Positions 15,675 to 48,245 of a DNA stretch of 64,000 bases are shown here, in pieces. The stretch comes from Alphaproteobacteria bacterium MarineAlpha9_Bin6 (GTDB taxonomy: Bacteria > Pseudomonadota > Alphaproteobacteria > UBA7887). Both the position numbers and the translations under genes were made by a program. Every line of letters starts with the position of its first letter. Within the stretch, counting starts at the first letter, position 1. The stretch lies in contig PTKE01000001.1 in assembly GCA_002937585.1 (NCBI GenBank), positions 5,936 to 69,935 on the forward strand. Reading direction: 5' to 3'. The notes under the pieces were generated by a model. The model was not told the origin of the DNA and did not search any database. It saw only the letters and a list, made by a program, of their open reading frames with translations.

Positions 15675-16841
15675 TTACCCTACCCGGTAACGGTCGACGA
15701 ATTCCTGATTGATAGTCACCCCAAGGCCGGGCCTGCGCGGTATATCGATAAATCCATCCTCAACAAGGAAATCCTCCTCGGCAAGTTCATGCAACATTGG
15801 ATTAGCGCCGAGAGAGTATTCGACGATGAAACCAGTCGAAGCAACCGCAGCCAAATGCAAGCCAGAGGCAAAAGTAAGTGCCCCACCCCACAAATGTGGC
15901 GCAAGCCTAATTTGATAGGCACTTGCCAAAGCCTCGATCTTGATACCTTCGGATATTCCACCTGCGATTGACAAATCAGGCTGAAAAATGTCCGCAGCCC
16001 GTCTCTCCGCAAGATCGCGAAATGCAAATCGGGTGAACTCGCTTTCACCCGTAGCAATCGGTATATCAGTCGATGCGCGGACCTCAGCCAGACCCGCTTT
16101 GTCATCAGCCGTGACAGGTTCTTCAAGCCAGCCAATATCACAATCCGCAACCCTGCGGCAAAAGCGTTTAGCCTCGCTTACATCAAAGGTGCCATGAGCG
16201 TCGCACATAATCGCTATATCCTCACCCAACCCAGCGCGTGCAGCGTGAACCCGCTTGATAGAATGAGCGAGCGTGCCATCACCAGATCCAACCCGCATCT
16301 TCACTGCCTTAAAGTTCCCTTGCTCTATAAAGCCATGCAACTCGTCGGCAATGCGATCTACGGGAGCCCAACCACCCGAGGCGTACGCAGGCATCCGTGC
16401 ATGACGTGTCCCGCCGAGTAGTTGCCAAACCGGCTCCCCGAGTGATTTCCCGAGAATGTCCCACAGCGCCATGTCAATGCCACTAATCGCGGAGACAGTG
16501 ATGCCCCGACGGCCTAAAACAGGAAAAACGTGGCCGCGCTCGATCGCATAGTGGGCACGAACGCCGTTATACATTACATCCCATAAACGAGAGATATCCC
16601 TTGCGTCCTCTCCCAAAAGCTGTGGACCAAGTTCCTGCTCAATTAAGGCACACAAAGCGTGGTTGGTGCTAGCACTGCCGACCTGTGCCTTGGCCTCGCC
16701 GTATCCAATCACTCCTGACTCGGTTTCAATCCGAATCAACGCGCTATCAAACGAATCTACCTTGCCGAAATCGCTCCGGTGCTGACGCGTTTCCGGGATA
16801 GGTACATGCAACCAGGTTGCCTTTACGGATTTAATTTTCAT
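15675..16841 (-). CDS. Enolase-superfamily enzyme (mandelate racemase / muconate lactonizing enzyme family)
   Basis: 388 aa; MR/MLE-type N-terminal capping domain plus a TIM barrel with metal-ligand acidic residues (KMRVG, MCDAHG, WLEEP); convergent with korB. Confidence 0.75.
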   Translation of the reverse strand: MKIKSVKATWLHVPIPETRQHRSDFGKVDSFDSALIRIETESGVIGYGEAKAQVGSASTNHALCALIEQELGPQLLGEDARDISRLWDVMYNGVRAHYAIERGHVFPVLGRRGITVSAISGIDMALWDILGKSLGEPVWQLLGGTRHARMPAYASGGWAPVDRIADELHGFIEQGNFKAVKMRVGSGDGTLAHSIKRVHAARAGLGEDIAIMCDAHGTFDVSEAKRFCRRVADCDIGWLEEPVTADDKAGLAEVRASTDIPIATGESEFTRFAFRDLAERRAADIFQPDLSIAGGISEGIKIEALASAYQIRLAPHLWGGALTFASGLHLAAVASTGFIVEYSLGANPMLHELAEEDFLVEDGFIDIPRRPGLGVTINQEFVDRYRVG

Positions 16842-17055: not shown

Positions 17056-17916
17056 TTAACAAACAGTGCGGAAACGCTCGACGCATACGTCCAGCACTTC
17101 GCTGGGGTCGCGCTTCCACCAATTATTCACTGAGAACACTTCGACTTCGCAATACCCAGAATAACCGGCATTCTCAACAGCTTGTCGTATAGCCTTCAAA
17201 TCCGCGACACCATCACCCATCATGCCTCGATCTAACAGCACATCGTTAGTGTCAGCGAGCCAATCACACAAATGGTACCCAGCAATCCGATCTGCGCCAG
17301 CTCGTTTCAACTCGGAAGCAAGAGAAATATCCCACCACACATGGTACACATCCACTGCAATTGTAACGAACGGATGTGCAATATCCTCACACATGTTCAC
17401 CGCGTCACGAACCGTCACGAGGCAGGAACGACTCGCCCCGTAGACGGGATGTAACGGCTCAACCGCGAGTCTCACTCCGGATGATTCTGCATATTGCGCC
17501 ATGTCTGCAACAATTGAGGCAACCTCCTTAAGGCTCTCCGTAATACTATGCGAACCTTCAATCACGCCACCGGCACAAACTGTGAGACACCTAGCACCAA
17601 GATCCGAGGCTATCTCGATTGCCAACTTAAAGTCATCGATCACTTCTTGCCTACCGCCAGGTGTGAGTGGACCGACTAAAAAAGGAGCTCGGCACAAGCC
17701 CGATACTTCAAGTCCTGCCGACCGTGTGCGTTCTCCTATTTCGAATCCCCGTTTCCCGATTTCACGCCGCCACCAAGCAATCGCCCCAAACCCTCGTTCT
17801 GCGCAAGCATCGATGATCCGTTCCGGCGACCAGCCCGCACCGCACCCCTCCATAAGGTGACCAAGTGTTGCCGTATTAAGCGCCAAATCCGAGTGATCTT
17901 CCGAGAAATTCCGCAT
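17056..17916 (-). CDS. Sugar phosphate isomerase/epimerase (xylose-isomerase-like TIM barrel)
   Basis: 286 aa; AP-endonuclease-2 / xylose-isomerase-like TIM-barrel composition; upstream of the MR/MLE gene on the same strand. Confidence 0.65.
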   Translation of the reverse strand: MRNFSEDHSDLALNTATLGHLMEGCGAGWSPERIIDACAERGFGAIAWWRREIGKRGFEIGERTRSAGLEVSGLCRAPFLVGPLTPGGRQEVIDDFKLAIEIASDLGARCLTVCAGGVIEGSHSITESLKEVASIVADMAQYAESSGVRLAVEPLHPVYGASRSCLVTVRDAVNMCEDIAHPFVTIAVDVYHVWWDISLASELKRAGADRIAGYHLCDWLADTNDVLLDRGMMGDGVADLKAIRQAVENAGYSGYCEVEVFSVNNWWKRDPSEVLDVCVERFRTVC

Positions 17917-18086: not shown

Positions 18087-19763
18087 ATGGAAAACGAATT
18101 ACCAGACTTCATTGTGGTCTGATCAGGTGCCGCAGGAATGACTGCAGCGTTAACCGGCTTAATGCTTGGTCTAAAAGTTAAAATCTTAGAAAAATCAGAG
18201 GTCATTGGTGGCACTACATCGCTGTCAGCCGGATCGGTGTGGATTCCCAATTCTATGCATTCAACGCCTGGCGCCGATAGCGATAAAAAAACGAGGACCT
18301 ATCTTCGCAAGACCGTTGGAAACAGACTCAAACCGGAACTTTGTGATGCCTTTCTAAAACATGGTCCCGCCATGATCCGATTTTTATCGGACACTGATGT
18401 GAAATTTCGTGCTTACCCAAAGCACCCTGACTATTTTGCAGATGCCGAGGGAGCAACCCTATCCGGGCGTGCTTTGGAGCCCCTTCCCTTCAATGGCGCC
18501 AGCCTGGGCGCAGATTTTCATCGACTGAGAGATCCCCTGCCAGAATTTACTATCCTGGGCGGCAGGATGGTTGATCGGGATGATATTGCAAAGTTGCTCA
18601 ATGCTGCCCAGAACCTCTCATCCTTTGCTCAATCTTCACAATTGCTTGCGCGATATGTTTTGGATCGATTGAGGTTCCACCGAGGCACACGATTAGTGAT
18701 GGGAAATGCCCTCGTCGGCCGGCTTTATTCCTCCCTTCGAAAACAAGGTGTGCGTGTGGATACCGGCACGAATGTAACGGGGTTAACCAAAGAAAATAAC
18801 AAAGTTATTGGCGTAGAAATTAAAAATAATAGGCAAACAGGACTGGCACTGGCGAAACATGGAGTGATTCTTGCGTCTGGCGGGTTTTCCCGTCATCCGG
18901 AACTACGCCGATCGCTTTTGCCGGAACCACTCGCCCAATTTTCTCCTTTGCCGGAAACAATAACGGGAGATGGCGTCTCAATTGGCATAGACGCAGGTGG
19001 ATTCATTGGGAACGGACACGCAGAGAATTGTTTTTGGACCCCTGTCTCGGTTCGAAAACGAAAAGACGGATCCATGACCGTCTTTCCGCATTTTGTCTTG
19101 GACCGGGGAAAACCAGGCTTAATCGCGGTTGATCGAAATGGCAGGAGATTCGTTAGCGAGGCAACGGACTACCATTCGTTCGGAAAAGCAATGTATGCAA
19201 ACAAAACTAGAGGAACAATTCCCTGTTATTTCGTTTGTGATTACAACTTTATCCAGAAATATGGCCTCGGCATGGTTCGCCCTCGCGCGTCAAATCTCTC
19301 GAATCTTGTATCGGAAGGGTATGTTGTAAAAGGAGAGACAATCACCGCTCTCGCCAAGGAACTGAGGATTGATAGTCATGGCCTGTTGGCGGAGGTGAAA
19401 ACTCAAAATGAATATGCACAAAGCGGGGTCGATACAGAATTTGGCAACGGTCGCAACTCGTACGAACGTAACCTTGGAGATCACAGGCATAGGCCTAATC
19501 CCTGCCCTGGCCCCATCAAAAAACCACCATTTTTTGCGATCAAAGTCTATCCCGGGGATTTAGGGGCGAGTATTGGCCTTGTGACCGATAAAAATGCCCA
19601 AGTCATTAAGTCAGGCAATGGACCAATATCTGGACTTTACGCCTGCGGAAGCGATATGGACTCCATGATGGCCGGTGTCTACCCAGGGCCAGGAATTACA
19701 ATTGGACCAGCAATGACGTTCGGTTATATCGCCGCAAAACATATCGCAGGCAACATATCATGA
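18087..19763 (+). pseudogene. FAD-dependent oxidoreductase (KstD / fumarate-reductase-flavoprotein-like) with in-frame TGA inside the GxGxxG FAD-binding motif
   Basis: Upstream of the ORF-track start (18138) the same frame reads MENELPDFIVV-TGA-SGAAGMTAALTG; TGA (18120-18122) occupies the first Gly of the dinucleotide-binding motif; downstream GGTTSLSAGSVW is typical of this family. Confidence 0.5.
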
Positions 19764-19904: not shown

Positions 19905-20606
19905 TTGACGGCAGACAATTACCCTCCAGACAATGCGGCCGGTCAACCAGACAATGCTGCTCCGACTTATCGCTCGACTCAAAAACGAGCGCCTTCTATT
20001 CCCCCGGTCGTGGTCCCCGCAACTCTGGGTGAACTCTCCAAACCATTGTTCGGGCACAACAATCTCACTGAGAATGACTCTGATCTCACACGTCAACATA
20101 ATGCCAAACCACAAGGTGAGCGCATTATTGTTGCTGGAAGGTTACTTGACGAAGGATTGCGCCCAGCGTCGGGGCATCTGATAGAGATATGGCAAACCAA
20201 TGCCGCCGGTCGCTACATTCATGCGGCTGACCAACATGACGCGCCACTCGATCCCAATTTTACCGGCGCCGGCCGAACTGTAACGGATGCAGACGGATGG
20301 TACCGATTTACGACCGTAAAACCTGGTGCATATCCGTGGGGAAATCACACGAATGCGTGGCGACCTGCCCACATTCATTTTTCACTATTTGGCCCCAGTT
20401 TCCTATCTCGACTGGTCACACAAATGTACTTCCCCGCGGATCCACTTTTGGCGCTCGATCCAATTTTGCAATCAGTAGCTGACGCAACAGAACGTGCCCG
20501 CTTGATCTCAATATTGGACTTTGATCTCACCCAACCCGGATGGGCACTTGGATACCGTTTCGACATCACTCTTCGTGGAAACAACCAGACCCCCACTGAG
20601 AGCTAA
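19905..20606 (+). CDS. pcaH: Protocatechuate 3,4-dioxygenase beta subunit
   Basis: 233 aa; TTG start with an AGGGA RBS; strong match to PcaH core (GRLLDEGLRPASGHLIEIWQTNAAGRYIH, AHIHFS). Confidence 0.85.
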   Translation: MTADNYPPDNAAGQPDNAAPTYRSTQKRAPSIPPVVVPATLGELSKPLFGHNNLTENDSDLTRQHNAKPQGERIIVAGRLLDEGLRPASGHLIEIWQTNAAGRYIHAADQHDAPLDPNFTGAGRTVTDADGWYRFTTVKPGAYPWGNHTNAWRPAHIHFSLFGPSFLSRLVTQMYFPADPLLALDPILQSVADATERARLISILDFDLTQPGWALGYRFDITLRGNNQTPTES

Positions 20607-20607
20607 A

Positions 20608-21189
20608 TTGAAAAACGCCACACCATCACAGACTATAGGACCATTCTTCGCCTATAGCCTGACATCAACGAAGTACGGTCGCAGGCTGCTTGCCTCGAAC
20701 CGCATTGACAGTGTATCGGGCACTCAAATCCGTGTTAAAGGGCAAGTGTTTGATGGAGACGGTGAACCGGTGCCGGACGCTATGTTAGAAATCTGGCAGG
20801 CAGACCCTGAAGGACGCCTGGCGGGGGCAAACGATGGCGCAAATATAAAATTCACAGGATTTGCTCGAGCCGCTACTGACCAAGACGGGACCTTCATCTT
20901 TGAAACCGTCAAACCCGGGCGTTTTCATACCTCAAACGACATTCTGCAAGCACCCCACATCAGTGTAATCGTTTTTGCACGCGGCATCCTTACACATCTG
21001 CATACCCGTATCTATTTTGCGGATGAGACAAGTAACGATAACGATCCAATCCTAGCCGCGATCGAAGACCCCAATCGTCGTGTCACACTGATTGCTGTCC
21101 CAGATTCGGATGGAAATGGCTACACAAACTACCGCTTTAATATACGCCTTCAGGGTGAAGAGGAAACTGTTTTTTTTCAGTGGTCATAA
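20608..21189 (+). CDS. pcaG: Protocatechuate 3,4-dioxygenase alpha subunit
   Basis: Probable TTG start at 20608 (ORF track begins at 20521, overlapping pcaH); N-terminal LKNATPSQTIGPF matches the PcaG ELKETPSQTGGPY motif; APHISVIVFARGI...HTRIYF core. Confidence 0.85.
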   Translation: MKNATPSQTIGPFFAYSLTSTKYGRRLLASNRIDSVSGTQIRVKGQVFDGDGEPVPDAMLEIWQADPEGRLAGANDGANIKFTGFARAATDQDGTFIFETVKPGRFHTSNDILQAPHISVIVFARGILTHLHTRIYFADETSNDNDPILAAIEDPNRRVTLIAVPDSDGNGYTNYRFNIRLQGEEETVFFQWS

Positions 21190-21288
21190 AGTAATACAGA
21201 AATTAATTAATCTTCTAGATGAGATGTGTGCCATGAACGATTGGTTATTGAGCAATACTCAAAACCCAAGACTGAGCCGGCGATCCTT

Positions 21289-22611
21289 GTGCTAATTGAA
21301 CCACAGTTCCGCACCAAATTCGGCGATACAATTTGGGATATAACAGGACGCATAGCTCGCATGGCCGCCTTCGAAGGAGCTCTAGCTTCAGCGCAAGCAG
21401 CGACCGGACTAATTCCCGAGACATCCGCTAAATCAATAGTCCGTGTATGCAAAACTGCCCTGCCCGAAGCTAACGACTTATACGAAAAAGCTAAAGTTGC
21501 GGGCAACCCAGCCATCCCTTTTCTCAACTATTTAACAACAGCCGTTGCCTCTGAAGATTCCAATGCTGCTGCTCATGTCCACTTCGGCGCCACTAGCCAG
21601 GATTTAATCGATAGCGCCAACATGATGGCATTAGCGGAGATTGCTGATGCTCTTGATTCCATGTTGCTGGAGGTGGCATCTGATTTGCGCAAACTGGCCA
21701 TCGCTCACACCGAAACCCCCATGGTAGCTCGTACTTTGCTACAGCAGGCAACGCCGATCACGTTCGGACTCAAAGCCGCATTGTGGGGAATAGCCATCAC
21801 GCAAACACGGAAACAATTGAAAGCCGCAAGGTGCAACGATATGGCAGTCCAACTAGGCGGGTCAAACGGCACCCTGTCCGCGATGGCACCACATGGTCCC
21901 GCTGTGCGTGCCGACACTGCGGCACGTCTTGGTCTCACCGATCCGGATCATTGTTGGCATGTATTGCGTGGTCGTATCCTGACAATCTCGACTACGTTCG
22001 CAGCTTTAGTGGGAGCCGCAGCCAAAATTTCAGGTGACTGCATATTAATGATGCAGACTGAAGTCGGGGAATTGCAGGAGGCCTCACCAGGCGGATCATC
22101 AGCTATGCCCCAAAAGAAAAATCCAGTGGATGCGTTGGTGCCCATTGCGGCGCTACCCCTTGCAGCAACGCATCTATCAGCAATGACTGCTTCGCAAATG
22201 CATGCGCATGAGCGCGCAGCAGGACCGTGGCACAGCGAGTGGATCACCTTGCCAGTACTAACCAGTCTCACTCTTGCATCAATCGAGAGTCTCATGGGAA
22301 TGCTTTCTGGCCTAAAAATTAACACCTCTCAAATGAAAGCCAATCTTGCCCGCACCGGTGGAACACTTGCCGCCGAAGAACTTGCTGCAACTCTCGTTGA
22401 AAGCGTGGGACGCAACGAAGCACATAACCTAATCAGAACCCTAGTGGAGCAAAGTGACTATGAAAACTTTGCGGACACAATTCGTTCCAATACAAAGTTA
22501 TCAGGGCTGATTTCCGAAAGCAGGCTTAGCGAAATTTTAAGCTACAAAGGGCCTTTGGCCGCAGCTGCGCAGGAAGCTCAAAAATTGGTAAACACGATCA
22601 GTAACTCGTGA
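21289..22611 (+). CDS. pcaB: 3-carboxy-cis,cis-muconate cycloisomerase (fumarate-lyase superfamily)
   Basis: Fumarate-lyase signature GSSAMPQKKNP; N-terminus aligns with PcaB (FRTKFGDTIWDITGRIARMAAFEGALASAQA); probable GTG start at 21289 (ORF track 21226). Confidence 0.8.
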   Translation: MLIEPQFRTKFGDTIWDITGRIARMAAFEGALASAQAATGLIPETSAKSIVRVCKTALPEANDLYEKAKVAGNPAIPFLNYLTTAVASEDSNAAAHVHFGATSQDLIDSANMMALAEIADALDSMLLEVASDLRKLAIAHTETPMVARTLLQQATPITFGLKAALWGIAITQTRKQLKAARCNDMAVQLGGSNGTLSAMAPHGPAVRADTAARLGLTDPDHCWHVLRGRILTISTTFAALVGAAAKISGDCILMMQTEVGELQEASPGGSSAMPQKKNPVDALVPIAALPLAATHLSAMTASQMHAHERAAGPWHSEWITLPVLTSLTLASIESLMGMLSGLKINTSQMKANLARTGGTLAAEELAATLVESVGRNEAHNLIRTLVEQSDYENFADTIRSNTKLSGLISESRLSEILSYKGPLAAAAQEAQKLVNTISNS

Positions 22612-22650
22612 TTTCAACTTGTCACTAACAAAGTAGGAAAACCTCGACTT

Positions 22651-23454
22651 ATGCTTTCAAAACTGAACGGAAAAACACGTCTTTTTCTGACAGTGGGTTA
22701 CCCGATTGGTCAGGTCAAATCTCCGGCCGACATAACCGACGCATTTGAAGCACGTGGCATAAATGCGGTTCAGGTTCCGGTAGAAGTCTTGCCCGAAGGA
22801 ATTGACACCTTCTTTAAGGGCCTCCATTCAGCCACTAATCTTGATGGGATGGTAATAACGGTTCCATATAAATTTGTCGGCTCGAACATATGCAAGACTC
22901 TTACGCCTCGAGCTGCTCGCCTGGGTGCCGCCAATGTAATTCGCCGAAATTCTGACCGATCATGGCATGGAGACATGACAGACGGACTTGGTTTTTGTAA
23001 TGCGATTCGTGAAGCAGGTAGCGTTATAGACGGGCAACGGGCTTTATTAATCGGAGCAGGCGGAGCAGGTTCCGCGATCGGCCTCGCGTTACTTGATGAG
23101 GGGGTCGCGGAACTTAACATTTATGATATTGATCCAACACGGTCCGATAAGCTCTCGAGCCTCTTGGCAAGCGATTATGACGGTGTATCGGTCGTAAGCA
23201 ATTCCGACCCCATCGGTTTCGATATCATTGCACATGCAACCCCTACCGGCATGAAATCGAAAGATCCCCTGCCGCTCGATGTCGGTCAATTGGCAAACGA
23301 CATGCATGTGGGCGATGTCGTAACTGAACCGGAAATATCACCGCTGATTAAAGCAGCCAAAGAACGCGGTTGCCGAACCAATACAGGCATTGAAATGTTC
23401 GACGGTCACCGCGAAATAATTGTCGATTTTCTACTCCACCAAGAAAAGCGGTAG
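22651..23454 (+). CDS. Shikimate/quinate 5-dehydrogenase family protein (AroE/YdiB-like)
   Basis: 267 aa; VTVPYK substrate motif and GAGGAGSAIG NAD(P)-binding motif; sits immediately downstream of pcaB. Confidence 0.75.
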   Translation: MLSKLNGKTRLFLTVGYPIGQVKSPADITDAFEARGINAVQVPVEVLPEGIDTFFKGLHSATNLDGMVITVPYKFVGSNICKTLTPRAARLGAANVIRRNSDRSWHGDMTDGLGFCNAIREAGSVIDGQRALLIGAGGAGSAIGLALLDEGVAELNIYDIDPTRSDKLSSLLASDYDGVSVVSNSDPIGFDIIAHATPTGMKSKDPLPLDVGQLANDMHVGDVVTEPEISPLIKAAKERGCRTNTGIEMFDGHREIIVDFLLHQEKR

Positions 23455-23484
23455 ATCTGACAATTAAAGAATGGGAGACACCCT

Positions 23485-24174
23485 ATGTTAACCAACGCCG
23501 ATGCCTTCTTAGCCATATGGCATGATTTAGAATCGACCGGAAAATCAGAGTGGGAACGCTGGCATACATATGAGCATATGCCGGAAAGGGTTGGAATTCC
23601 TGGTTTCCTCGCGGGAAGGCGTTATATGAACGACGATGATCCGGAACAGTGTTGTTTCACGATGTACGAAGGGTCTGACCTCTCGGTTTTTGAATCCACG
23701 GCATACTTGGAACGCCTCAACAATCCGACGCCCTGGACTCGAGAAAATGCACCCACGTTCCGGAATTTTACTCGGGGCGCGTGCCATCGCGTCACACGTG
23801 CCGGATCCCAGCACGGCTACGGAGGTGTTATACTAACAGTACGTATTCTCCGTGGTCCGAAGTTTGCCGAAAATACAAAACAACTTTCCACACTGAACAA
23901 ATTAACTACCTCAATATGTGACTTAGAAGGAGTGACAGCAGCAACAATTGGGCTCTGCGACGCCGAGATCACAACTACCGAAACAACCGAGCGGAGCCTG
24001 AGAAAAAAGACTACCGAATCTACGCTCGATGGGGTCCTGATTGTTGAAGGATACAATGTGAGCACAATCAAAACACAGGGACCGAACATCGAAAAATTGG
24101 TCGCAATGTCCGACGTAGATCTGACACCGCTACCCCATCAAATATATGTACTTTCATACATGCTCAGGGGTTAA
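23485..24174 (+). CDS. Hypothetical protein embedded in the pca operon; possible internal two-domain duplication, no family recognised
   Basis: 229-aa ORF with a GGGAGA RBS 7 nt upstream, 30 bp after the AroE-like gene; the N-terminal half (AIWHDLES...WERWHTYEHMPERVGIPGFLAGRRY) and the C-terminal half look like related roughly 100-aa modules. Confidence 0.5.
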   Translation: MLTNADAFLAIWHDLESTGKSEWERWHTYEHMPERVGIPGFLAGRRYMNDDDPEQCCFTMYEGSDLSVFESTAYLERLNNPTPWTRENAPTFRNFTRGACHRVTRAGSQHGYGGVILTVRILRGPKFAENTKQLSTLNKLTTSICDLEGVTAATIGLCDAEITTTETTERSLRKKTTESTLDGVLIVEGYNVSTIKTQGPNIEKLVAMSDVDLTPLPHQIYVLSYMLRG

Positions 24175-24472: not shown

Positions 24473-25624
24473 TCAGTTTTCTATTTCCGGCACATCTACC
24501 CAACGCCGTTCTAATGAACTTTGATACGCAAGTTCTGCCAATTGCACCCCTTTGGCGCCCTCGCGAAGGTCCCAACGAAACGGAGTGTCTTCTGTGACAT
24601 GCCGGAGAAATAACTCCCATTGTGCCTTAAACGCGTTTTCGTAATCGGCATTATCAAGCACCTCCTGCCAATCAGCCAAGTAATCCATAGTTTGCGGTAG
24701 ATCAGGATTCCACACGGGCGTTGGTGTATTGATTCGGGATTGAGTCCAACACCGACGGAGTCCTGCGACCGCACTTCCGTCAGTACCATCAACCTGGATC
24801 GTCAATAAATCATCACGCCGCACTCTAACTGCCCAGGAACTATTGAAGTGAGCAATCCCGCCATTGCCCAACTCGAATGTCGCGTAGGCCGCGTCTTCTG
24901 CATCCGATTCATAACGCTCCCCCGCCTCGTCCCACCGCTCGTCTATATGCACTACGCCGCGACAGCTGACGGCTTTTACACCGCCAAATAAATTGTCGAG
25001 CAAGTACCGCCAGTGAGTCAACATATCAAGGATGATGCCACCGCCCTGACCCCGGCGATAGTTCCACGAAGGCCGTTGTGCTGGTTCACCAGCTCCATCA
25101 AACACCCAATACCCGAACTCACCACGCACCGATAGCAATCGGCCGAAGAAGCCAGAATCAAATAAATATTTTAGCTTTAACAAACCAGGCAACCATAGTT
25201 TGTCTTGTACTACGCCATGCTTAATATCAGCGGCTTTAGCACCACGATAAAGATTAACTGCATCAACAAAGTTTGTAGCTGTCGGTTTCTCACAATATAT
25301 GTGTTTCCCAGCAGCGATAGCTCGACGCACGAAATTTACGCGCAGGTCTGTACTAACGGCATCGAAAAAAATCGGCAAGTTGTCATCCCTGAGCATTTCC
25401 TCAACATCCGTACTCCATCGTGCGATCCCGTGCTCTTTTGCAAGCGAACGCAGTTTTCCCGAATCGCGACCAACTAGTACTGGTTCCGGGATTACACAAG
25501 TGCCATTACCGAGGATCAAACCACCCTCATCACGGATCGCAAGAATAGACCTCAAAAGGTGCTGTTTGGCACCCATCCGGCCTGTAACCCCGTTCATTAT
25601 TATGCCAATCTGTTTCTCTGCCAT
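24473..25624 (-). CDS. Gfo/Idh/MocA family NAD(P)-dependent oxidoreductase
   Basis: 383 aa; N-terminal Rossmann IGIIMNGVTGRMG; family-typical EKP motif (IYCEKPTA). Confidence 0.8.
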   Translation of the reverse strand: MAEKQIGIIMNGVTGRMGAKQHLLRSILAIRDEGGLILGNGTCVIPEPVLVGRDSGKLRSLAKEHGIARWSTDVEEMLRDDNLPIFFDAVSTDLRVNFVRRAIAAGKHIYCEKPTATNFVDAVNLYRGAKAADIKHGVVQDKLWLPGLLKLKYLFDSGFFGRLLSVRGEFGYWVFDGAGEPAQRPSWNYRRGQGGGIILDMLTHWRYLLDNLFGGVKAVSCRGVVHIDERWDEAGERYESDAEDAAYATFELGNGGIAHFNSSWAVRVRRDDLLTIQVDGTDGSAVAGLRRCWTQSRINTPTPVWNPDLPQTMDYLADWQEVLDNADYENAFKAQWELFLRHVTEDTPFRWDLREGAKGVQLAELAYQSSLERRWVDVPEIEN

Positions 25625-25782: not shown

Positions 25783-26958
25783 ATGTTGCGTCTGATTAGA
25801 ACAACCGGACCTATCGTCACCATTTTAGCTGCACTTAGCATAGCGCAAGCAGCCGAGGTAAAAATCGGAACGCTGTATCCCATCACTGGAGGTGGCGCAA
25901 TCTATGGATCTCCGGCGATGATCGGACACCGAATGGCAATCGATGAATTGAACTCTCAAGGAGGAATTCTCGGCATGCAGGTGGTGAGTGTGGAACGTGA
26001 CACGAAATTAAATCCCGCCACCGCGGCTGCGGCAGCAAAAGAAATGATCACGAAAGACGGCGTAAACGTGATCATTGGCGGTTTAAGTTCGGCGGTCGGT
26101 CTCGCCATTTCGGAGGTCGCCAAACAGGAAAAGGTCATCTATATCGCAACCATTCCCAAGACCATCCAAATGACAACTAACAGAAGACACGATTATGTTT
26201 TTCGTACAGCGTCACACACTGATTTCGAAGGGGACGCAATAGCGCAAATTGCAAAGCAACTGGGTGCCCAAAAGATTTGCGATATCCAGCTTGATTATGC
26301 GTATGGCCATGATTTAGCTGATGGAATCGAGAGGGGCTTGAAGCGTCATCTGCCGGACGCAAAGAAGGTTTTAGACCTTCGACCAAAATTGAGAGCGACT
26401 GACTACAACGTTTTTATTACCCAAATCATGGGAGCTGGATGTGATGTAGTGACAAGCGGCCTGTGGGGACCCCACTTTGTGGATTTCGCAAAACAGGCGT
26501 CTCCTTTCGGCCTGTTCCAACAGATCAAGTACATTACTGGTGGGGAGATAGGCAGCCAGGAGATTGCGGGTGCGATGGGTGAAGACTACCCAGACAACGT
26601 GTGGGCCAATTCCTACGAGTTGTGGTATCACCACTCGACCCAAGAACACAAAAATTTTCAGGAAGCACTAGCCAAGCGCCTGGACACCATTGAAACCCCC
26701 ATGTGGCCGGTATTAGCATTGATCGGCGTGCGTATGTATGGCGCTGCAGCAGAAAAAGCTGGATCCCTGGATGCGGCCAGCATATCCGATGCTCTTAAAG
26801 GCATGTCGATCGATACACCAGTTGGACCGCGCACCATCGATCCGGAAACGCACCAGGCGGATACTGGCCAGTTTTGGGGACCCATGGTGAAAAAGGAAGG
26901 TGTCCCCTACCGCGTGATGGATCCCATTACCTATATTCCCGCAAAAATCATCGAATAG
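25783..26958 (+). CDS. ABC transporter substrate-binding protein (branched-chain amino acid / LivK family)
   Basis: 391 aa with a signal peptide (ILAALSIAQAAEV); type-I periplasmic binding fold; first gene of the permease/ATPase operon. Confidence 0.8.
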   Translation: MLRLIRTTGPIVTILAALSIAQAAEVKIGTLYPITGGGAIYGSPAMIGHRMAIDELNSQGGILGMQVVSVERDTKLNPATAAAAAKEMITKDGVNVIIGGLSSAVGLAISEVAKQEKVIYIATIPKTIQMTTNRRHDYVFRTASHTDFEGDAIAQIAKQLGAQKICDIQLDYAYGHDLADGIERGLKRHLPDAKKVLDLRPKLRATDYNVFITQIMGAGCDVVTSGLWGPHFVDFAKQASPFGLFQQIKYITGGEIGSQEIAGAMGEDYPDNVWANSYELWYHHSTQEHKNFQEALAKRLDTIETPMWPVLALIGVRMYGAAAEKAGSLDAASISDALKGMSIDTPVGPRTIDPETHQADTGQFWGPMVKKEGVPYRVMDPITYIPAKIIE

Positions 26959-27045
26959 TCCGTTTATTGTCGAACTACGGAGAAAATCTCAGTTAGCCAG
27001 CGTCGGTGACAGGGTGCTTGTGCCGAGCTGAGATCAATCAATGTC

Positions 27046-27990
27046 ATGGAATCGCTGCTGGAATTTATTCGCATCGATATGGGAAGCCCAGGGTTAGCAA
27101 CTCTTGTGAGCAATCCCAAATTTGCTTTTATCCAGCTCCTGAACTCCGTGTCCATGGGCATGAATTTTTTTATTATTGCGGCGGGATTATCACTCATCTT
27201 CGGGGTGCTGAAAGTTATTAACTTTGCACACGGCGCCTTTTACATGTTTGGTGCCTATATTGCTTATTCAGTTACCGAGACGATGGGACTTAGTTTTTTT
27301 TGGGGCGTAATTGGCTCCGCCGTTGGTCTGGTTTTGCTCTCAGTGGTCATTGAACGCAGCCTATTCCGGTTCGTTTATGACAAAGAACACTTGATGCAAC
27401 TTTTACTGACATTTGCCTTGGTACTGATCCTAGGAGATGTAGCAAAAATAATTTGGGGTACCGACCAGTACAGTGTGTCATATCCAGCGAGTCTGTCTGG
27501 AGCAACAAACCTAGGAATAGCGTACTACCCGTCCTATCGCCTGCTACTTTGCATTCTGGGACCAGTCATTTTCCTAGCCTTGTGGCTCTTCATCGAACGC
27601 ACTCGCTGGGGCCGGATCACAAAAGCGGCCACTCAGAATCGTGAAATGCTGGCGGCTTTGGGTATCAACGTCCCAATCATCTACACTGGTGTGTTTGTAG
27701 CGGGCTCAGCACTGGCTGGTATTGGGGGTGCTCTAGCCTCACCATTTAACAGCCCAACTCCCGGCATGGACGCCATCATCATCGTGGAGTGTTTCGTGAT
27801 CGTCATTATCGGCGGCTTAGGCTCATTGTGGGGAACCTTCGTTGGGGCGTTGATTTATGGCTTCGTGTTCAACTTTGGCTCGGTGATCGTACCCAACGGT
27901 CAAGACATATTCGCCTTTCTGATTCTGCTGGTAGTATTGCTTATCCGGCCATGGGGTCTTTTTGGGCGCCCGGAGACGGAAGGGCAGTAG
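27046..27990 (+). CDS. livH: Branched-chain amino acid ABC transporter permease (LivH-type)
   Basis: 314 aa polytopic membrane protein; FAHGAFYMFGAY motif typical of LivH. Confidence 0.8.
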   Translation: MESLLEFIRIDMGSPGLATLVSNPKFAFIQLLNSVSMGMNFFIIAAGLSLIFGVLKVINFAHGAFYMFGAYIAYSVTETMGLSFFWGVIGSAVGLVLLSVVIERSLFRFVYDKEHLMQLLLTFALVLILGDVAKIIWGTDQYSVSYPASLSGATNLGIAYYPSYRLLLCILGPVIFLALWLFIERTRWGRITKAATQNREMLAALGINVPIIYTGVFVAGSALAGIGGALASPFNSPTPGMDAIIIVECFVIVIIGGLGSLWGTFVGALIYGFVFNFGSVIVPNGQDIFAFLILLVVLLIRPWGLFGRPETEGQ

Positions 27991-27995
27991 GACTC

Positions 27996-28937
27996 ATGAC
28001 CGATGCAATGACTCGATCGGCTATGGCCGGCTGTCTGATATCCTTAGCCCTCCTGATATCCGTACCGCTGTTTCAATCGGCCTACTTAATTGATGTTGTT
28101 ACAGAGATTCTGATTTACGCGCTGTTCGCTCTCAGCCTAAACGTTATCATCGGCTATTCAGGCAATGTTTCCTTTGGTCACGCCGCGTATTTTGCGATTG
28201 GCGGTTATACCAACGCTATTTTGCTAACAAGCCACGGATGGGCTTTGGTGCCATCTTTCGTAACCAGCATTCTCGTCACAATGATAGCTGCAGGCTTTGT
28301 CGCTTATTTTTGTACGCGGCTCACCAACATTTACTTTGCAATGTTAACGCTCGCTTTTTCAATGTTGGTCTGGGCCATTGCATTTAAATGGCGCTCAGTA
28401 ACGGGAGGAGACGATGGATTCGTCGGCATCCGTGTCCCAGAGATTATCAACAATCGAGCTCACTTCTACTACTTCACCTTAATCATGGTAACGGCAGCGA
28501 CCACCCTACTATGGTTTATATGCCACTCGGCGTTTGGGCGGACCCTGGTGGCAGTGCGTGAAAACGCTACTCGGGCTGGATTTGTTGGCGTCAACACCCG
28601 TCTCATGCGCTGGTGGGCCTTCGTTGTCGCTGGTACCTTTGCCGGCATAGCTGGGGCCATCTTCGGTATGTTCCACCGCGGTATGTACGTGGAATCAGCA
28701 TTCTGGACTCAATCGGCAACGGTTCTGATCATGACCCTATTGGGTGGCATGTTTTCTTTTTTCGGTCCGGCAATCGGCGCCGCCACACTTTTTATCCTGG
28801 AACGAATAACCAACGAATACACCGAGTATTGGCCAACGGTTTTAGGCTGCATTCTTCTGGTAATATTGCTATTCCTGCCAGATGGCCTAGCCGGGCTGGC
28901 TCGCAAAGTGCGTAGTTATGTTGCGGGAAGCAATTAG
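27996..28937 (+). CDS. livM: Branched-chain amino acid ABC transporter permease (LivM-type)
   Basis: The ORF track starts at 27789 and overlaps livH by 200 nt; ATG at 27996 (MTDAMTRS), 5 nt after the livH stop, gives a 313-aa polytopic permease. Confidence 0.75.
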   Translation: MTDAMTRSAMAGCLISLALLISVPLFQSAYLIDVVTEILIYALFALSLNVIIGYSGNVSFGHAAYFAIGGYTNAILLTSHGWALVPSFVTSILVTMIAAGFVAYFCTRLTNIYFAMLTLAFSMLVWAIAFKWRSVTGGDDGFVGIRVPEIINNRAHFYYFTLIMVTAATTLLWFICHSAFGRTLVAVRENATRAGFVGVNTRLMRWWAFVVAGTFAGIAGAIFGMFHRGMYVESAFWTQSATVLIMTLLGGMFSFFGPAIGAATLFILERITNEYTEYWPTVLGCILLVILLFLPDGLAGLARKVRSYVAGSN

Positions 28938-28939
28938 AA

Positions 28940-29692
28940 ATGTTGGAAACGCACGACCTGCACAAACACTTTGACGGGTTTAAAGCAATCACTGCGATCA
29001 ATTTTAAACTCATTGAGGGGGAACGACATGCCATCATTGGTCCAAATGGTGCCGGCAAAACGACGTTCTTCAATCTCATCACCGGACACCTGCAACCCAG
29101 TGCAGGCGAAGTTCGCTATAAAGGAGACCTGATTAGTGGTCTACCCCCATACAGAATCGTAAAGCTTGGCCTCGCCCGCTCTTTCCAACGCATCAACATT
29201 TATCCGCGAATGACCGTGTTCCAGAATGTCCAAGTGGCGTTAATTGCTCAGAACAATCAACATCTCCATTTTTTCACCCGAGCTCACAATTTATACAAGG
29301 AAGAAACAGAGGACCTTCTTGAACTCGTTGATCTTTTGGGAGAGATACAGGACATCGCTGGTGAACTGGCGTACGGAAAACAAAAACAGCTGGAATTGGC
29401 CATTTCACTTGCCGCCAACCCCCGAGTATTGCTGCTTGATGAACCCACCGCCGGCATGTCGCCCAGTGAGACAGCGGAATCGATCAGGCTAATCAACGAC
29501 ATCACGCAAAGCCGCTCCTTGACCCTTTTGTTTACTGAACATGACATGAGCGTCGTTTTTAGTATTGCCGATCGAATCAGCGTACTTCATCACGGGGAAA
29601 TTTTAGCCTCCGGCGCGCCCGATGAGGTACGTAAAGATGTAGAAGTTAGAAGGGTCTATCTAGGTGAAGAGGTGGGTCATGCCTCAGCTTGA
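28940..29692 (+). CDS. livG: ABC transporter ATP-binding protein (LivG-type)
   Basis: Walker A GPNGAGKTT, signature LAYGKQ, Walker B LLLDEPTAG. Confidence 0.85.
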   Translation: MLETHDLHKHFDGFKAITAINFKLIEGERHAIIGPNGAGKTTFFNLITGHLQPSAGEVRYKGDLISGLPPYRIVKLGLARSFQRINIYPRMTVFQNVQVALIAQNNQHLHFFTRAHNLYKEETEDLLELVDLLGEIQDIAGELAYGKQKQLELAISLAANPRVLLLDEPTAGMSPSETAESIRLINDITQSRSLTLLFTEHDMSVVFSIADRISVLHHGEILASGAPDEVRKDVEVRRVYLGEEVGHASA

Positions 29693-30386
29693 GGTTAAAG
29701 GAATTCACGCTTCGTATGGCCTGAGCCATGTTTTATTTGGCGTTTCATTTAACGTTGAGGCAGGACAGTGCGTTTCCTTGATCGGCAGAAATGGCGTAGG
29801 CAAGACAACCACAATGCGATCCATCATCGGCCTGACACCCGCCCATATAGGAAATATCGTATTCGAAGGCACGGACATCACCCACCTTCCCACACATAAA
29901 ATCGCAAAACTTGGCATCGCGTTTGTGCCGGAAGAACGGCATATCTTTCCAGAGCTTTCCGTATGGGAGAATCTTGATATAGCCCGACGTCGACCAAGGA
30001 ACGATGGGCCGGCTTGGAGCGAAGAAGAGGTCTACGAGTTATTTCCGGACCTGAAGGAAATACGAAACCGACTGGGGGGTGTTTTGTCGGGCGGCCAACA
30101 ACAAATGCTAACTGTAGCACGAAGTCTGATGGGTAACCCAAGGTTGTTGATTTTAGATGAACCCTCCGAGGGCCTTGCCCCAAAATTGGTTGAAACACTT
30201 CGTGATCGAGTAGCACTTCTCAAAGATGGAGGGATGTCGATCGTATTAGCGGAGCAAAATCTTAAGTTTGTTCTATCGCTGAGCGATCACTGCCACATTA
30301 TGGAAAAAGGTGAGATCAAGTTTTCAGGAACTCCTGAAGACCTTCGTGAAAATGCTCAAGTAAAAGAGAAATACTTAACTCTATGA
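29679..30386 (+). CDS. livF: ABC transporter ATP-binding protein (LivF-type)
   Basis: Walker A GRNGVGKTT, signature LSGGQQQM, Walker B ILDEPSEG; start at MPQLEVKG overlaps livG by 14 nt. Confidence 0.85.
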   Translation: MPQLEVKGIHASYGLSHVLFGVSFNVEAGQCVSLIGRNGVGKTTTMRSIIGLTPAHIGNIVFEGTDITHLPTHKIAKLGIAFVPEERHIFPELSVWENLDIARRRPRNDGPAWSEEEVYELFPDLKEIRNRLGGVLSGGQQQMLTVARSLMGNPRLLILDEPSEGLAPKLVETLRDRVALLKDGGMSIVLAEQNLKFVLSLSDHCHIMEKGEIKFSGTPEDLRENAQVKEKYLTL

Positions 30387-31621: not shown

Positions 31622-31934
31622 AATGATCGGCGTGCGAAACATCGCCCCGAGCCTCTACCACACCCCTGAAACGGAGCTTGCGCCTACCACGAAACAATAA
31701 TTGGTCTGGTTCCTCAGCAAGCTTTAGTACTAAGTCGTATCGAACCCGCGTCCGGCCAGGTTTCATCTTAATCATGACAGAATCAGACGTGCTACGCGTG
31801 ACAACTCCATCCCATATAACGTGTCGACCGGCACAAAGCTCATCGAATACTTCGACAGCCTCCTCTGGCGTATTCAAAACGCGTGCTTCCGCTGCACTCC
31901 CGCCAGAAGTCCCTCCAAGCCAACGCGGAACCAT
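31542..31934 (-). CDS. Possible small hypothetical ORF in an otherwise empty 480-bp gap (weak)
   Basis: 130-aa minus-strand ORF with protein-like composition (EAVEVFDELCAGRHVIWDGVVTRSTSDSVMIKMKPGRTRVRYDLVLKLAEE); its 3-prime 80 nt overlap the LLM gene; no RBS and no recognisable family. Confidence 0.2.
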   Translation of the reverse strand: MVPRWLGGTSGGSAAEARVLNTPEEAVEVFDELCAGRHVIWDGVVTRSTSDSVMIKMKPGRTRVRYDLVLKLAEEPDQLLFRGRRKLRFRGVVEARGDVSHADHFRNLASPHWQKVVPKILPSQVAYRGN

Positions 31935-32046
31935 CGAACGCTACGTACTGGCCCAGCACGTAGTAGCAACCACCCGAGGAACACATGATAGAAATTGAGA
32001 CGCACTTTATTATTTCCCGTAACGTTACATCTGAAACTGGCAGGAT

Positions 32047-32080
32047 CGCGGATGAAACTACGACGCCTAACGCATCCGCG
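32047..32080. promoter_or_regulatory. 8-bp perfect inverted repeat CGCGGATG-N18-CATCCGCG immediately upstream of the DUF3237 gene
   Basis: Seen in the sequence at 32047-32054 and 32073-32080; ends 24 nt before the probable DUF3237 start. Confidence 0.25.
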
Positions 32081-32103
32081 TGTCGATATATGGGTTCCGA
32101 TCA

Positions 32104-32574: not shown

Positions 32575-32775
32575 TCTATTGTTTTGTAACCAATAGGGTA
32601 TTTACAGAAACCGTCTTTCATTTTTGAGTTTCAGATTCCTGAAGGACCGGTGCTAACATATGGCCTGAGAAAAATGGGCATGACAAAGAAAGCATCACCA
32701 TTGTAATGACGTAGCGTTTGAGTACTTGGTACGGTGGCGTCCACCAATCGTTCTAACCTCACATATATGATAATC

Positions 32776-34098: not shown

Positions 34099-34150
34099 CG
34101 ATTTTGAGCACTAGACCACAACGTAACGCAATGCAATCAGGAGCAACGCC

Positions 34151-35941: not shown

Positions 35942-35969
35942 GTGCTGAAGGAAGTAAAACAGGTGACCG

Positions 35970-48241: not shown

Positions 48242-48245
48242 TCGT

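Follow-up and report, generated by a model that had tools for sequence, protein, structure and literature searches.

A conserved marine operon joining protocatechuate dioxygenase genes to an AroE-like dehydrogenase and an unnamed barrel protein family

In the window, the whole 64 kb stretch of DNA analysed here, five ORFs form a single tight block on the forward strand (19905-24174), in the order pcaH-pcaG-pcaB-like gene-SDH homolog-229-aa ORF. The cluster described in the original prediction, pcaH-pcaG-pcaB followed by an AroE-like gene and a 229-aa ORF, is real, and its coordinates were confirmed. That prediction overlooked several recurrent neighbours, namely enolase-superfamily, TIM-barrel, KstD-like and Gfo/Idh/MocA genes and a LivJ-type ABC transporter. 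The features of the region are as follows.

15675-16841, reverse strand: enolase-superfamily (MR_MLE) gene; Pfam MR_MLE_N and MR_MLE_C
17056-17916, reverse strand: xylose-isomerase-like TIM-barrel gene; Pfam AP_endonuc_2
18087-19763, forward strand: KstD-like FAD-dependent oxidoreductase gene, disrupted here; Pfam FAD_binding_2
19905-20606, forward strand: pcaH, protocatechuate 3,4-dioxygenase beta subunit; TIGR02422, 331.8 against a cut-off of 296.4
20608-21189 (most likely), forward strand: pcaG, protocatechuate 3,4-dioxygenase alpha subunit; TIGR02423, 223.3 against a cut-off of 126.25
21289-22611 (most likely), forward strand: pcaB-like class II lyase gene; Pfam Lyase_1, NCBIfam scores under cut-off
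22651-23454, forward strand: SDH-family dehydrogenase gene, divergent subclass; Shikimate_dh_N domain, below every NCBIfam SDH cut-off
23485-24174, forward strand: gene for a 229-aa protein of an unnamed family; predicted tandem ferredoxin-like (dimeric alpha+beta barrel) fold
24473-25624, reverse strand: Gfo/Idh/MocA oxidoreductase gene; Pfam GFO_IDH_MocA domains
25783-30386, forward strand: LivJ-type ABC transporter; Pfam families from gene calls on identical contigs
25783-26958, forward strand: ABC binding protein
27046-27990 and 27996-28937, forward strand: ABC permeases
28940-29692 and 29664-30386, forward strand: ABC ATPases

The pcaH product matched PCDO_beta_N and Dioxygenase_C in Pfam. 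For pcaG, the TIGR02423 alignment begins at residue 34 of the longest ORF, and the identical sequence is called as a 193-aa protein in locus L003; this locus and other relatives are likewise consistent with a 440-aa start for the pcaB-like gene. The latter had been named pcaB, a label that we weaken because its scores fall below the family cut-offs (NF006554, 357 against 595; TIGR02426, 302 against 356). In the PDB it is nevertheless closest to 3-carboxymuconate cycloisomerases (1re5, E 1e-67, and 1q5n), its translation contains a GSSAMPQKKN loop, and the product is probably a 3-carboxy-cis,cis-muconate cycloisomerase. The predicted lack of pcaC, pcaD and a LysR- or IclR-family regulator was also upheld: a six-frame tblastn search of the window with S. 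meliloti PcaC, PcaD, PcaI and PcaJ found none (best E = 0.27), Pfam scans found no CMD domain in its small leftover ORFs, and no LysR, IclR or other regulator was seen among its ORFs (by eye, plus Pfam on 20 ORFs). Moreover, pcaC and pcaD are absent from all syntenic loci.

The SDH homolog reached a best NCBIfam SDH score of 131 against a cut-off of 252, and its closest structure is 4k28 (E 3e-49). It retains the catalytic Lys/Asp pair and differs, by eye, at what we take to be S14, N59, Y215 and Q244 of E. coli AroE. An acidic residue follows the Rossmann beta-2 strand (IYDID), a position at which acidic residues go with NAD+ use and the catabolic direction; on this basis the enzyme is probably NAD+-dependent and would act oxidatively. 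Elsewhere, of 80 metagenomic loci with homologs at 45-56% identity, about 40 have a KstD-like FAD gene directly 3'; the subclass is found amid the genes known from the uncharacterised P. putida lig1/lig2 operons, and its gene neighbourhood resembles that of P. putida RifI. In the RifI-class enzyme of P. putida, activity is low towards shikimate and no more than a trace towards quinate; the SDH homolog may truly act on another compound. The suggestion that the AroE-like gene feeds the pathway is plausible given the retained Lys/Asp pair, the acidic residue and the recurrence of this subclass and the 229-aa family in hydroaromatic and aromatic catabolic clusters.

The flanking genes are less uniformly retained. 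The MR_MLE gene, whose best NCBIfam matches are acid-sugar dehydratases (none reaching cut-off), is conserved beside the operon in L010, where it lies upstream and divergent, and in L013; an MR_MLE gene recurs near the 229-aa gene elsewhere: in S. meliloti pRM41A the two overlap by 4 bases at the end of the 229-aa gene, and in Gaiella they diverge. The TIM-barrel gene is closest in the PDB to two uncharacterised proteins, 3ju2 (SMc04130) and 3qc0 (E 1e-74), and is not recognisable as a dehydroshikimate dehydratase, the AsbF and QuiC1 structures being unmatched at E <= 0.001. The KstD-like gene scored 704 with NF009477 (cut-off 758), and its closest PDB entry is 7p18, a 3-oxosteroid 1-dehydrogenase (E 2e-92). 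Its codon 12 is a premature stop, TGA, where haplotype L004 has GGA, encoding the first Gly of the GxGxxG motif; L002 shares the stop, and the sole indels over 20.5 kb in L001 and L003 lie within this gene. The KstD-like gene is decaying in the window population, whereas the SDH homolog and the 229-aa gene are under purifying selection. The Gfo/Idh/MocA gene, closest to the uncharacterised 3oqb (E 5e-157), is variable in the clade and missing from L010 and L013.

The order pcaH-pcaG-pcaB-like-SDH-229-aa gene-ABC transporter is conserved in marine relatives, at identities down to about 43-54%, with the transporter 3' of the 229-aa gene in all of them. Locus L100 retains the run pcaB-like gene-SDH homolog-229-aa gene-binding protein, with identities to the window of 43%, 54% and 52%. 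In L015, pcaHG is joined to the cluster via an inverted segment. The core is intact, with short gaps, in L010, from which the TIM-barrel, FAD and GFO genes are absent; the TIM-barrel gene is therefore dispensable in the marine clade, and the SDH homolog and the 229-aa gene are the sole non-pca, non-transporter genes inside the operon there. Thus, the 229-aa ORF is neither poorly conserved nor missing from the syntenic cluster, and the arrangement holds across the marine clade.

The 229-aa protein had no match in Pfam, NCBIfam or the PDB by sequence or profile searches. It is nonetheless the product of a real gene, given a dN/dS of about 0.08 and a confident AlphaFold model (pLDDT 94.8), which predicts a tandem ferredoxin-like barrel, neither an all-alpha CMD fold nor an alpha/beta hydrolase. 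The stand-alone family comprises about 3,800 clusters at 50% identity. Among homologs of at least 50% identity, the SDH homolog lies 26-45 bp upstream in 13 of 17 distinct loci (tblastn, within 10 kb; L008-L010, L013, L015-L021, the window population L001-L004 counted once, and the BAL199-type L005), and a TRAP binding protein takes its place in the other four (50-60% identity). Across 81 loci, the genes within 5 kb include TIM barrels (46), NAD-epimerase-type dehydrogenase (28), type II dehydroquinase (25), SDH homolog (22), KstD-like FAD enzyme (20), GFO oxidoreductase (20) and intradiol dioxygenase (9). The dehydroquinase count is far above chance, as this gene is normally present in one or two copies per genome. 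Immediately beside the 229-aa gene there is often a dehydrogenase of the ring or alcohol type, drawn from one of several families (SDH homolog, NAD-epimerase type, Zn-ADH or FAD enzyme), and the dioxygenases among the partners are of hydroxyquinol or protocatechuate type.

Our leading, still tentative reading is that the operon feeds ortho cleavage of protocatechuate from a non-aromatic ring acid, with the SDH homolog and the 229-aa protein making protocatechuate and pcaC and pcaD located elsewhere. This would be consistent with the conserved marine core, the SDH homolog directly upstream in 13 of 17 loci, the neighbouring TIM barrels, dehydroquinase, intradiol dioxygenases and varied dehydrogenases, the lig1/lig2-type gene set of the SDH subclass, and the decay of the FAD gene while the SDH homolog and the 229-aa gene stay under selection. 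The near-invariant residues of the family (His, Glu, two Tyr and five Arg) would also suit acid-base catalysis on a carboxylate substrate. Several observations pull the other way. The 229-aa gene stands in a housekeeping context in Hyphomicrobiaceae, beside glmM, folP and ftsH, and its steady position after the pcaB-like gene in the marine clade is equally consistent with a downstream role. The closest PDB matches of the ABC binding protein are 3i45 and 8tg1, followed among others by 4f06, 4ey3 and 4evs, with a score about equal to that for LivJ; as we take the last three to be Rhodopseudomonas aromatic-acid-binding proteins, the imported compound could already be aromatic. In addition, 26 of 27 loci with dehydroquinase also carry a TIM barrel similar to Lmo2234 of Listeria and QuiC1 of P. 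putida, so that the 229-aa protein cannot simply be the dehydroshikimate dehydratase there.

A cofactor-independent, O2-dependent ABM-type oxygenase or oxidase acting on an enediol or catechol is an unlikely alternative. Such an enzyme might convert 3-dehydroshikimate to gallate, a net desaturation also open to a KstD-like flavoenzyme, or oxidatively decarboxylate protocatechuate to hydroxybenzoquinone, which a neighbouring dehydrogenase would reduce to hydroxyquinol. The family is seen only in aerobic lineages, some clusters combine it with maleylacetate reductase and an intradiol dioxygenase of the hydroxyquinol type while lacking a PobA-type hydroxylase, and the SDH homolog is partnered by either the FAD enzyme or the 229-aa protein in many loci, the FAD gene decaying where the latter is present. 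However, the protein shares 6-11% identity with any oxygenase and has no ABM Pfam match; in several genomes the FAD and 229-aa genes adjoin directly, with probable co-translation, which speaks against a simple either-or relationship; and the partner in the window is a bona fide PcaHG, which requires protocatechuate and not a hydroxyquinol product.

We consider it rather improbable that the SDH homolog and the 229-aa protein act on another substrate class that bypasses protocatechuate, such as a sugar or cyclitol processed together with the TIM-barrel and GFO enzymes. Their place next to pcaHGB would then reflect only the crowding of catabolic genes around a common transporter in a streamlined genome. 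In favour of this reading, a keto-sugar is the substrate of at least one SDH-family enzyme (7cok, presumably a 5-ketofructose reductase from its entry name, matched at E 2e-17), uncharacterised members of sugar- and inositol-type families are very close homologs of the TIM-barrel and GFO genes, many of the family's clusters are rich in polyol dehydrogenases, and no regulator links the genes. Against this, L010 drops the TIM-barrel and GFO genes with the rest intact, and ring aromatisation is suggested by the family's linkage, across phyla, to genes for dehydroquinase and intradiol dioxygenases.

A ligand-binding, sensing or protective role, rather than that of a pathway enzyme, is very unlikely: NIPSNAPs of the same fold class, annotated as sensors, are encoded in the lig1 operon of P. 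putida and in at least 24 SDH-FAD loci (as tandem proteins of similar size in those examined), and the Hyphomicrobiaceae context would fit, but homology to tandem NIPSNAPs is undetectable (hhalign probability 0.6%), about 20 residues of polar active-site type are near-invariant across 28-96% identity, and coupling to dehydrogenase genes is tight, apparently at the level of translation.

The earlier proposal that the 229-aa protein performs the lactone steps, replacing PcaC and PcaD alone or with the SDH homolog to convert 4-carboxymuconolactone to 3-oxoadipate, fares worst and is very improbable. It draws on the invariable position 3' of the pcaB-like gene in marine loci lacking pcaC and pcaD, on Chelatococcus (229-aa gene-pcaH-pcaG-pcaF-pcaI-pcaJ, with no pcaB-, pcaC- or pcaD-like sequence by tblastn in the surrounding 20.7 kb) and on muconolactone isomerase, which acts on a related lactone and likewise has a ferredoxin-like barrel. 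However, only 5 of 81 loci, each of them from the marine clade, have a pcaB-like gene within 5 kb of the 229-aa family gene, and outside this clade the family almost never occurs with pcaB. Thalassobaculum and BAL199 carry the SDH-229-aa gene pair by itself, away from any pca genes, the hydroxyquinol pathway to which other clusters belong is not known to have a carboxymuconolactone intermediate, in S. meliloti pRM41A some 9 kb separate the 229-aa gene from a canonical pcaDCHG set, so that it is compatible with standard pcaC and pcaD, the protein has neither a CMD nor a hydrolase domain or fold, and the redox-neutral conversion leaves no role for an NAD-dependent dehydrogenase.

If the operon does funnel a ring acid into protocatechuate, the ABC transporter would bring in a shikimate- or quinate-like hydroaromatic carboxylic acid, and the SDH homolog would oxidise a ring hydroxyl to a ketone with NAD+. 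The 229-aa protein, as a cofactor-independent barrel enzyme, would then turn the cyclic keto/enol intermediate into an aromatic diol by enolisation-driven dehydration or tautomerisation. Protocatechuate would be cleaved by PcaHG and the product lactonised by the pcaB-like enzyme, with PcaC, PcaD and PcaIJF supplied from elsewhere in the genome. The 229-aa family would in effect fill the role of a dehydroshikimate dehydratase with an unrelated fold.

The real lead in this locus is a pair of adjacent genes, an AroE-like homolog of the shikimate dehydrogenase family (SDH) and the 229-aa ORF directly downstream of it (UNK), a variant of a known pathway type that holds a large protein family to which no function has been assigned. 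The original prediction described a cluster of pcaHGB, an AroE-like gene and an unknown ORF without pcaC, pcaD or a regulator, and this description was confirmed from ORF coordinates, profile scores and six-frame tblastn searches, with regulators judged by eye; its interpretation gained partial support. The five ORFs lie where they were predicted, all on the + strand and spaced 1 to about 100 bp apart.

Genes of the operon and the preceding flavoprotein gene (window coordinates)
18087-19763, + strand: KstD-like FAD oxidoreductase (FAD gene), with a TGA stop at codon 12 (18120-18122)
19905-20606, + strand: pcaH; TIGR02422 score 331.8, equivalog cut-off 296.4; PCDO_beta_N and Dioxygenase_C domains
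20608-21189, + strand: pcaG; TIGR02423 score 223.3, equivalog cut-off 126.25
21289-22611, + strand: pcaB-like class II lyase; closest matches are 3-carboxymuconate cycloisomerases
22651-23454, + strand: SDH homolog; shikimate-dehydrogenase substrate domain PF08501, E 4e-16
23485-24174, + strand: UNK, of an unnamed family; tandem ferredoxin-like repeats in the AlphaFold model

The label pcaB had to be weakened. The best PDB matches of the third gene product are indeed cycloisomerases (1re5, E 1e-67; 1q5n, E 5e-65), followed by trans-aconitate decarboxylase (1e-52) and then nitrosuccinate lyase CreD, and the class II lyase signature loop GSSAMPQKKN is readable in its translation; because it nevertheless scores below both PcaB equivalog cut-offs (NF006554, 357 against 595; TIGR02426, 302 against 356), we call the gene pcaB-like. 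The operon thus resembles the pcaHGBDC/pcaIJF beta-ketoadipate pathway in its equivalog-level pcaH and pcaG and the cycloisomerase-like gene directly after them, but differs in this sub-cut-off pcaB-like gene and in having no pcaC, pcaD, pcaI or pcaJ and no PcaQ/PcaR/PcaU-type regulator across the 64 kb and the syntenic loci. S. meliloti PcaC, PcaD, PcaI and PcaJ queries gave no tblastn match in the six frames of the 64 kb, where the small leftover ORFs encode proteins such as a cupin and a biotin carrier, and pcaC and pcaD were not found in any syntenic locus of the marine clade, that is, the relatives sharing this gene order. No transcription regulator of any family was recognised in the 64 kb (by eye, and by Pfam on 20 ORFs), although several blocks of catabolic genes and four transporter systems lie there. 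A search of 16.8-26 kb for promoters and terminators yielded sites no more numerous than in shuffled sequence. That the operon lacks pcaC and pcaD is a conserved trait, yet unremarkable in itself, since pca genes are frequently dispersed in genomes.

The same 20 kb is present in five near-identical population variants (the window and haplotypes L001-L004). Among marine relatives, L008-L010, L013 and L096-L098, with UNK at 72-96% identity, keep the order pcaH-pcaG-pcaB-like-SDH-UNK-ABC transporter, and the pcaHGB-aroE-ORF synteny holds down to 43-54% identity in the metagenomic contig L100 (pcaB-like, SDH and UNK at 43%, 54% and 52% identity to the window). The order in L015, the single-cell genome AG-404-I19, deviates only because pcaH, pcaG and the 5′ part of pcaB-like are inverted relative to the near-identical L100, with the breakpoint within pcaB-like (L015:1-1460 versus L100:1-1564); the arrangement is either a true inversion or an amplification chimera. 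The flanking TIM-barrel, FAD and GFO genes of the window are missing from L010, and the stable core therefore consists of the five genes and the transporter. The original prediction had listed poor conservation or loss of the ORF in relatives as counting against it; instead, UNK is retained in the syntenic loci, with a dN/dS of 0.08 against L008 and L010 that does not exceed the values for pcaH, pcaG and pcaB-like. UNK is a real, conserved gene.

Outside this core, four of the five haplotypes sampled carry a disrupted FAD gene. Codon 12, inside the GxGxxG motif, reads TGA in the window and in L002 and GGA in L004, the only haplotype with an intact gene; for L001 and L003, all indels across 20.5 kb are confined to the FAD gene. 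These three independent lesions suggest ongoing loss, and given the disruption in most haplotypes together with the absence from L010, the flavoenzyme appears dispensable in this lineage, while SDH and UNK are maintained. Its product resembles the ChcC1/ChcC2 desaturases of the cyclohexanecarboxylate pathway (NF053677, 382 bits, and NF053676, 277 bits, both below the cut-offs) and KstD (KstD-type structures match at E 2e-92), enzymes that desaturate beside a ring ketone and are able to make the ring aromatic; the window gene differs from them in its disruption and its loss in L010. The TIM barrel of the window (17056-17916, - strand) was set aside as a dehydroshikimate dehydratase because it has no AsbF/QuiC1 match and is likewise absent from L010. 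Very close structural-genomics homologs without assigned function exist for this TIM barrel (3ju2 and 3qc0, E 1e-74) and for the GFO-family oxidoreductase at 24473-25624, - strand (3oqb, E 5e-157), which hints at a widespread uncharacterised enzyme pair.

Past the ABC transporter lies a second gene block (30572-45402) encoding luciferase-like monooxygenases, a DUF3237 protein, a second binding protein, a TPP enzyme, a cupin, a second FAD_binding_2 flavoprotein related to tricarballylate dehydrogenase TcuA, a carboxyltransferase with biotin carrier, a family III CoA-transferase, an SDR and an OYE-like reductase. In a relative at 58% identity (L089:8115-11760), part of this block is syntenic with the SDH-UNK pair, and the two may form one catabolic island. 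By eye, we also recognised a biotin synthesis block (bioA, bioF, bioD; 45540-48950) and a CoxSML-type molybdenum hydroxylase cluster with an SRPBCC protein and 2Fe-2S, FAD and large subunits (56988-61181).

The SDH homolog missed all AroE and YdiB cut-offs (best NF001319, 131 against 252; YdiB-type NF009390, 77.5 against 349). Its nearest structure is 4k28, deposited as 'SDH family protein' (E 3e-49), and AroE, YdiB and QsuD structures match at only about 1e-20. The catalytic residues K74 and D111, as expected of the SDH superfamily, are invariant in the alignment of its subclass; by eye, we equate them with K65 and D102 of E. coli AroE, and on the same comparison four E. coli AroE substrate-contact positions are presumably changed. 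An acidic residue following the Rossmann beta-2 strand suggests NAD+ as the cofactor. A reciprocal scan with this subclass gave 80 metagenomic loci (L096-L175), in about half of which a KstD-like FAD gene lies directly 3′ of SDH, mostly accompanied by a divergent IclR gene. A TIM barrel is found within a few kb in 25-30 of the 80, and at least 24 have a tandem NIPSNAP (about 210 aa); among these loci, UNK adjoins SDH in the marine clade alone. Literature searches for 4K28, 7VPF, SMc04130 and SDH class names returned nothing.

A comparable gene set is that of lig1/lig2 in P. putida KT2440, which comprises PP_2608 rifI, two FAD oxidoreductases, NIPSNAP, an MFS transporter, the IclR regulators LigR1 and LigR2, a TIM-barrel 'putative DSD' and a LigC-like gene, with enzymes described as functionally uncharacterised (bioRxiv 10.1101/2025.08.13.670189). 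According to the same authors, the role of RifI-class SDHs had not been assigned with certainty even though more than 15 years had passed since these enzymes were identified (bioRxiv 10.1101/2025.08.13.670189). Both lig1/lig2 and the window combine a divergent SDH homolog with an FAD oxidoreductase, a two-barrel small protein, a TIM barrel, a GFO-family oxidoreductase and a transporter, and the lig1/lig2 gene set recurs around metagenomic SDH homologs 45-56% identical to that of the window, a comparison made at the level of gene sets. The window differs in that its transporter is of the ABC and not the MFS type, UNK takes the place of NIPSNAP with no detectable homology between the two, and the genes are joined in one operon with pcaHG and pcaB-like; of the three RifI/lig1-type partners IclR, KstD-like FAD oxidoreductase and NIPSNAP, the window itself has the FAD gene alone, in disrupted form. 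The canonical quinate/shikimate funnel, made up of QuiA or QsuD/YdiB, the dehydroquinase QuiB or QsuC and the dehydratase QuiC/QsuB/AsbF, likewise places an SDH-family dehydrogenase ahead of protocatechuate cleavage, and elsewhere UNK-family genes are found together with type II dehydroquinase and QuiC-like TIM barrels. The window, in contrast, lacks a dehydroquinase as well as any recognisable dehydroshikimate dehydratase, its SDH lies under the AroE/YdiB cut-offs with substrate-contact residues altered (by eye), and the barrel-fold UNK sits where the dehydratase would be expected.

Searches of Pfam, NCBIfam and PDB with the single UNK sequence and with a family profile gave no usable match. 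Homologs are nonetheless numerous (1,908 in a 90%-clustered collection and 3,827 clusters in a 50%-clustered one), and nearly all are stand-alone proteins of about 225 aa; no genuine domain fusion was found among 1.84 billion representatives, three longer matches being mis-called GC-rich ORFs. The AlphaFold model (pLDDT 94.8) repeats a beta-alpha-beta-beta-alpha-beta unit twice, a ferredoxin-like repeat forming a barrel, which places the predicted structure in the dimeric alpha+beta barrel (ABM-like) fold. UNK is only 6-11% identical to solved members of that superfamily (ABM monooxygenases, LsrG, bacterial chalcone isomerase, NIPSNAP, DUF4286), its family profile has no PDB match, and its motif set WHTxEHxPER, GRRY and RLNxPTPWT is found in no described family. 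Specifically, there was no Pfam match to NIPSNAP (PF07978) and an hhalign probability of 0.6% against the tandem NIPSNAP from like clusters; DUF4286 (PF14114) matched only 4 of 41 UNK-family members (best E 0.01), and five distant plasmid homologs carry the DUF4286 name from PGAP; muconolactone isomerase (PF02426) showed neither sequence nor close structural similarity. Near-invariant positions number about 20 in a set of 243 representatives (28-96% identity), including W12, W26, E30, H31, E34, R35, R45, R46, Y61, Y74, R77, W84 and R97 in the N-terminal half and T167, E169, R173 and E188 further on, a set that looks like a polar, carboxylate-binding active site.

The partners of UNK elsewhere were counted within 5 kb in 81 non-redundant genomic loci. 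TIM barrels are the most frequent (46), followed by NAD-epimerase-type dehydrogenases (28), type II dehydroquinase (25), SDH homolog (22), KstD-like flavoenzyme and GFO oxidoreductases (20 each), GntR (18) and IclR (16) regulators and intradiol dioxygenases (9), whereas pcaB-like occurs in only five loci, all of the marine clade. The SDH-UNK pair stands alone in Thalassobaculum and BAL199. In Chelatococcus sp. (L085:3098-15538), the order is TIM-dehydroquinase-TIM-SDH-IclR-SnoaL-maleylacetate reductase-hydroxyquinol dioxygenase-UNK-PcaH-PcaG-PcaF-PcaI, followed by an ORF 49% identical to PcaJ; tblastn over 20.7 kb around this cluster gave no pcaB-, pcaC- or pcaD-like sequence. S. meliloti pRM41A carries a run of aldo/keto reductase, NIPSNAP, dehydroquinase, maleylacetate reductase, UNK, enolase-family protein, NTF2 protein, intradiol dioxygenase, TIM barrel and FAD enzyme, with pcaDCHG adjoining it. 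In Sagittula, the stops and starts of FAD-UNK-Zn-ADH overlap or lie 2 bp apart. Tandem NIPSNAP adjoins the TIM barrel in SDH-FAD modules (L123:2522-3154, L152:2608-3246 and at least 22 more of L096-L175), is also found at L069, L074, L075 and L081, and co-occurs with UNK in Brucella and Ochrobactrum; it is similar to UNK in size and shares its fold class, with undetectable homology.

In 19 of the 81 loci, dehydroquinase, SDH homolog, intradiol dioxygenase, FAD enzyme and TIM barrel are all missing; these include Hyphomicrobiaceae and another marine clade with a TRAP binding protein before UNK. The Hyphomicrobiaceae loci (L023-L030, L042, L090) share a conserved housekeeping neighbourhood, with glmM, a ParA-like gene and a gene of unknown function on one side and folP, ftsH and tilS on the other, and about half of their UNK homologs (247-257-aa forms) have an extra insert of about 10 residues. 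This context does not fit a purely catabolic role of UNK.

By analogy, we read the window as a putative marine variant of a lig1/lig2-type hydroaromatic module that has been joined with the three leading genes of the protocatechuate branch. For the conserved core, the most parsimonious scheme is that the transporter would take up a ring acid, the SDH homolog would oxidise a ring hydroxyl in an NAD-dependent step, UNK would turn the keto intermediate into protocatechuate, and PcaHG and then the pcaB-like enzyme would act on it, with later steps presumably encoded elsewhere in the genome. UNK is placed upstream of protocatechuate because it is constantly paired with a dehydrogenase of changing family, because it is associated with dehydroquinase and two different intradiol pathways, because the window has no other recognisable aromatising candidate (the TIM barrel being lost in L010 as well), and because cofactor-free enolate chemistry is known for its fold class. 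UNK was dismissed as a dehydroquinase substitute because it co-occurs with type II dehydroquinase in 25 loci, and its predicted model is not the xylose-isomerase-like TIM barrel of AsbF/QuiC/QsuB-type dehydroshikimate dehydratases. The main weakness of an aromatising role is that a QuiC-like TIM barrel accompanies 26 of the 27 dehydroquinase-containing UNK loci, so UNK must do something additional there, and the strongest competing reading is a putative role as oxygenase or oxidase. According to papers citing the R. jostii hydroxyquinol study, the hydroxylase ro01860 described there is a PobA-type flavoprotein and no relative of UNK. Replacement of PcaC or PcaD by UNK, the portion of the original interpretation that did not hold up, is weak, since UNK matches neither the CMD family in Pfam or NCBIfam nor alpha/beta-hydrolases, and its predicted fold is neither all-alpha nor that of an alpha/beta-hydrolase. 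Further points against it are the pcaB-like neighbour in just 5 of 81 loci, the SDH-UNK pair without pca genes in Thalassobaculum and BAL199, the presence of UNK in hydroxyquinol clusters, a pathway without a carboxymuconolactone intermediate, and its position about 9 kb from pcaDCHG in S. meliloti pRM41A.

In its fullest form, the aromatisation reading makes UNK the founder of a new enzyme family, a cofactor-free barrel that aromatises the keto product of a ring dehydrogenase and, with a RifI-class SDH, constitutes a portable two-gene module turning a hydroaromatic acid into an intradiol ring-cleavage substrate; we regard this as possible but rather doubtful. On this reading, UNK would do the work of dehydroshikimate dehydratase without being homologous to it, or would oxidise dehydroshikimate to gallate. 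If the pair makes no protocatechuate or related diol, what is left is a common kind of split pca pathway in which two unannotated genes are passengers. Production of protocatechuate or a related diol by the pair would give a function to a large unnamed family (about 3,800 clusters at 50% identity, no Pfam entry) that spans Alpha- and Betaproteobacteria, Actinomycetota and Chloroflexota, and a physiological substrate and role to RifI-class shikimate dehydrogenases. It would also add a compact route, perhaps independent of metals, by which alicyclic acids become aromatic substrates of ring cleavage, with bearing on engineered protocatechuate or gallate production and on how the turnover of carbon from plant and algal hydroaromatics in the sea and in soil is annotated.
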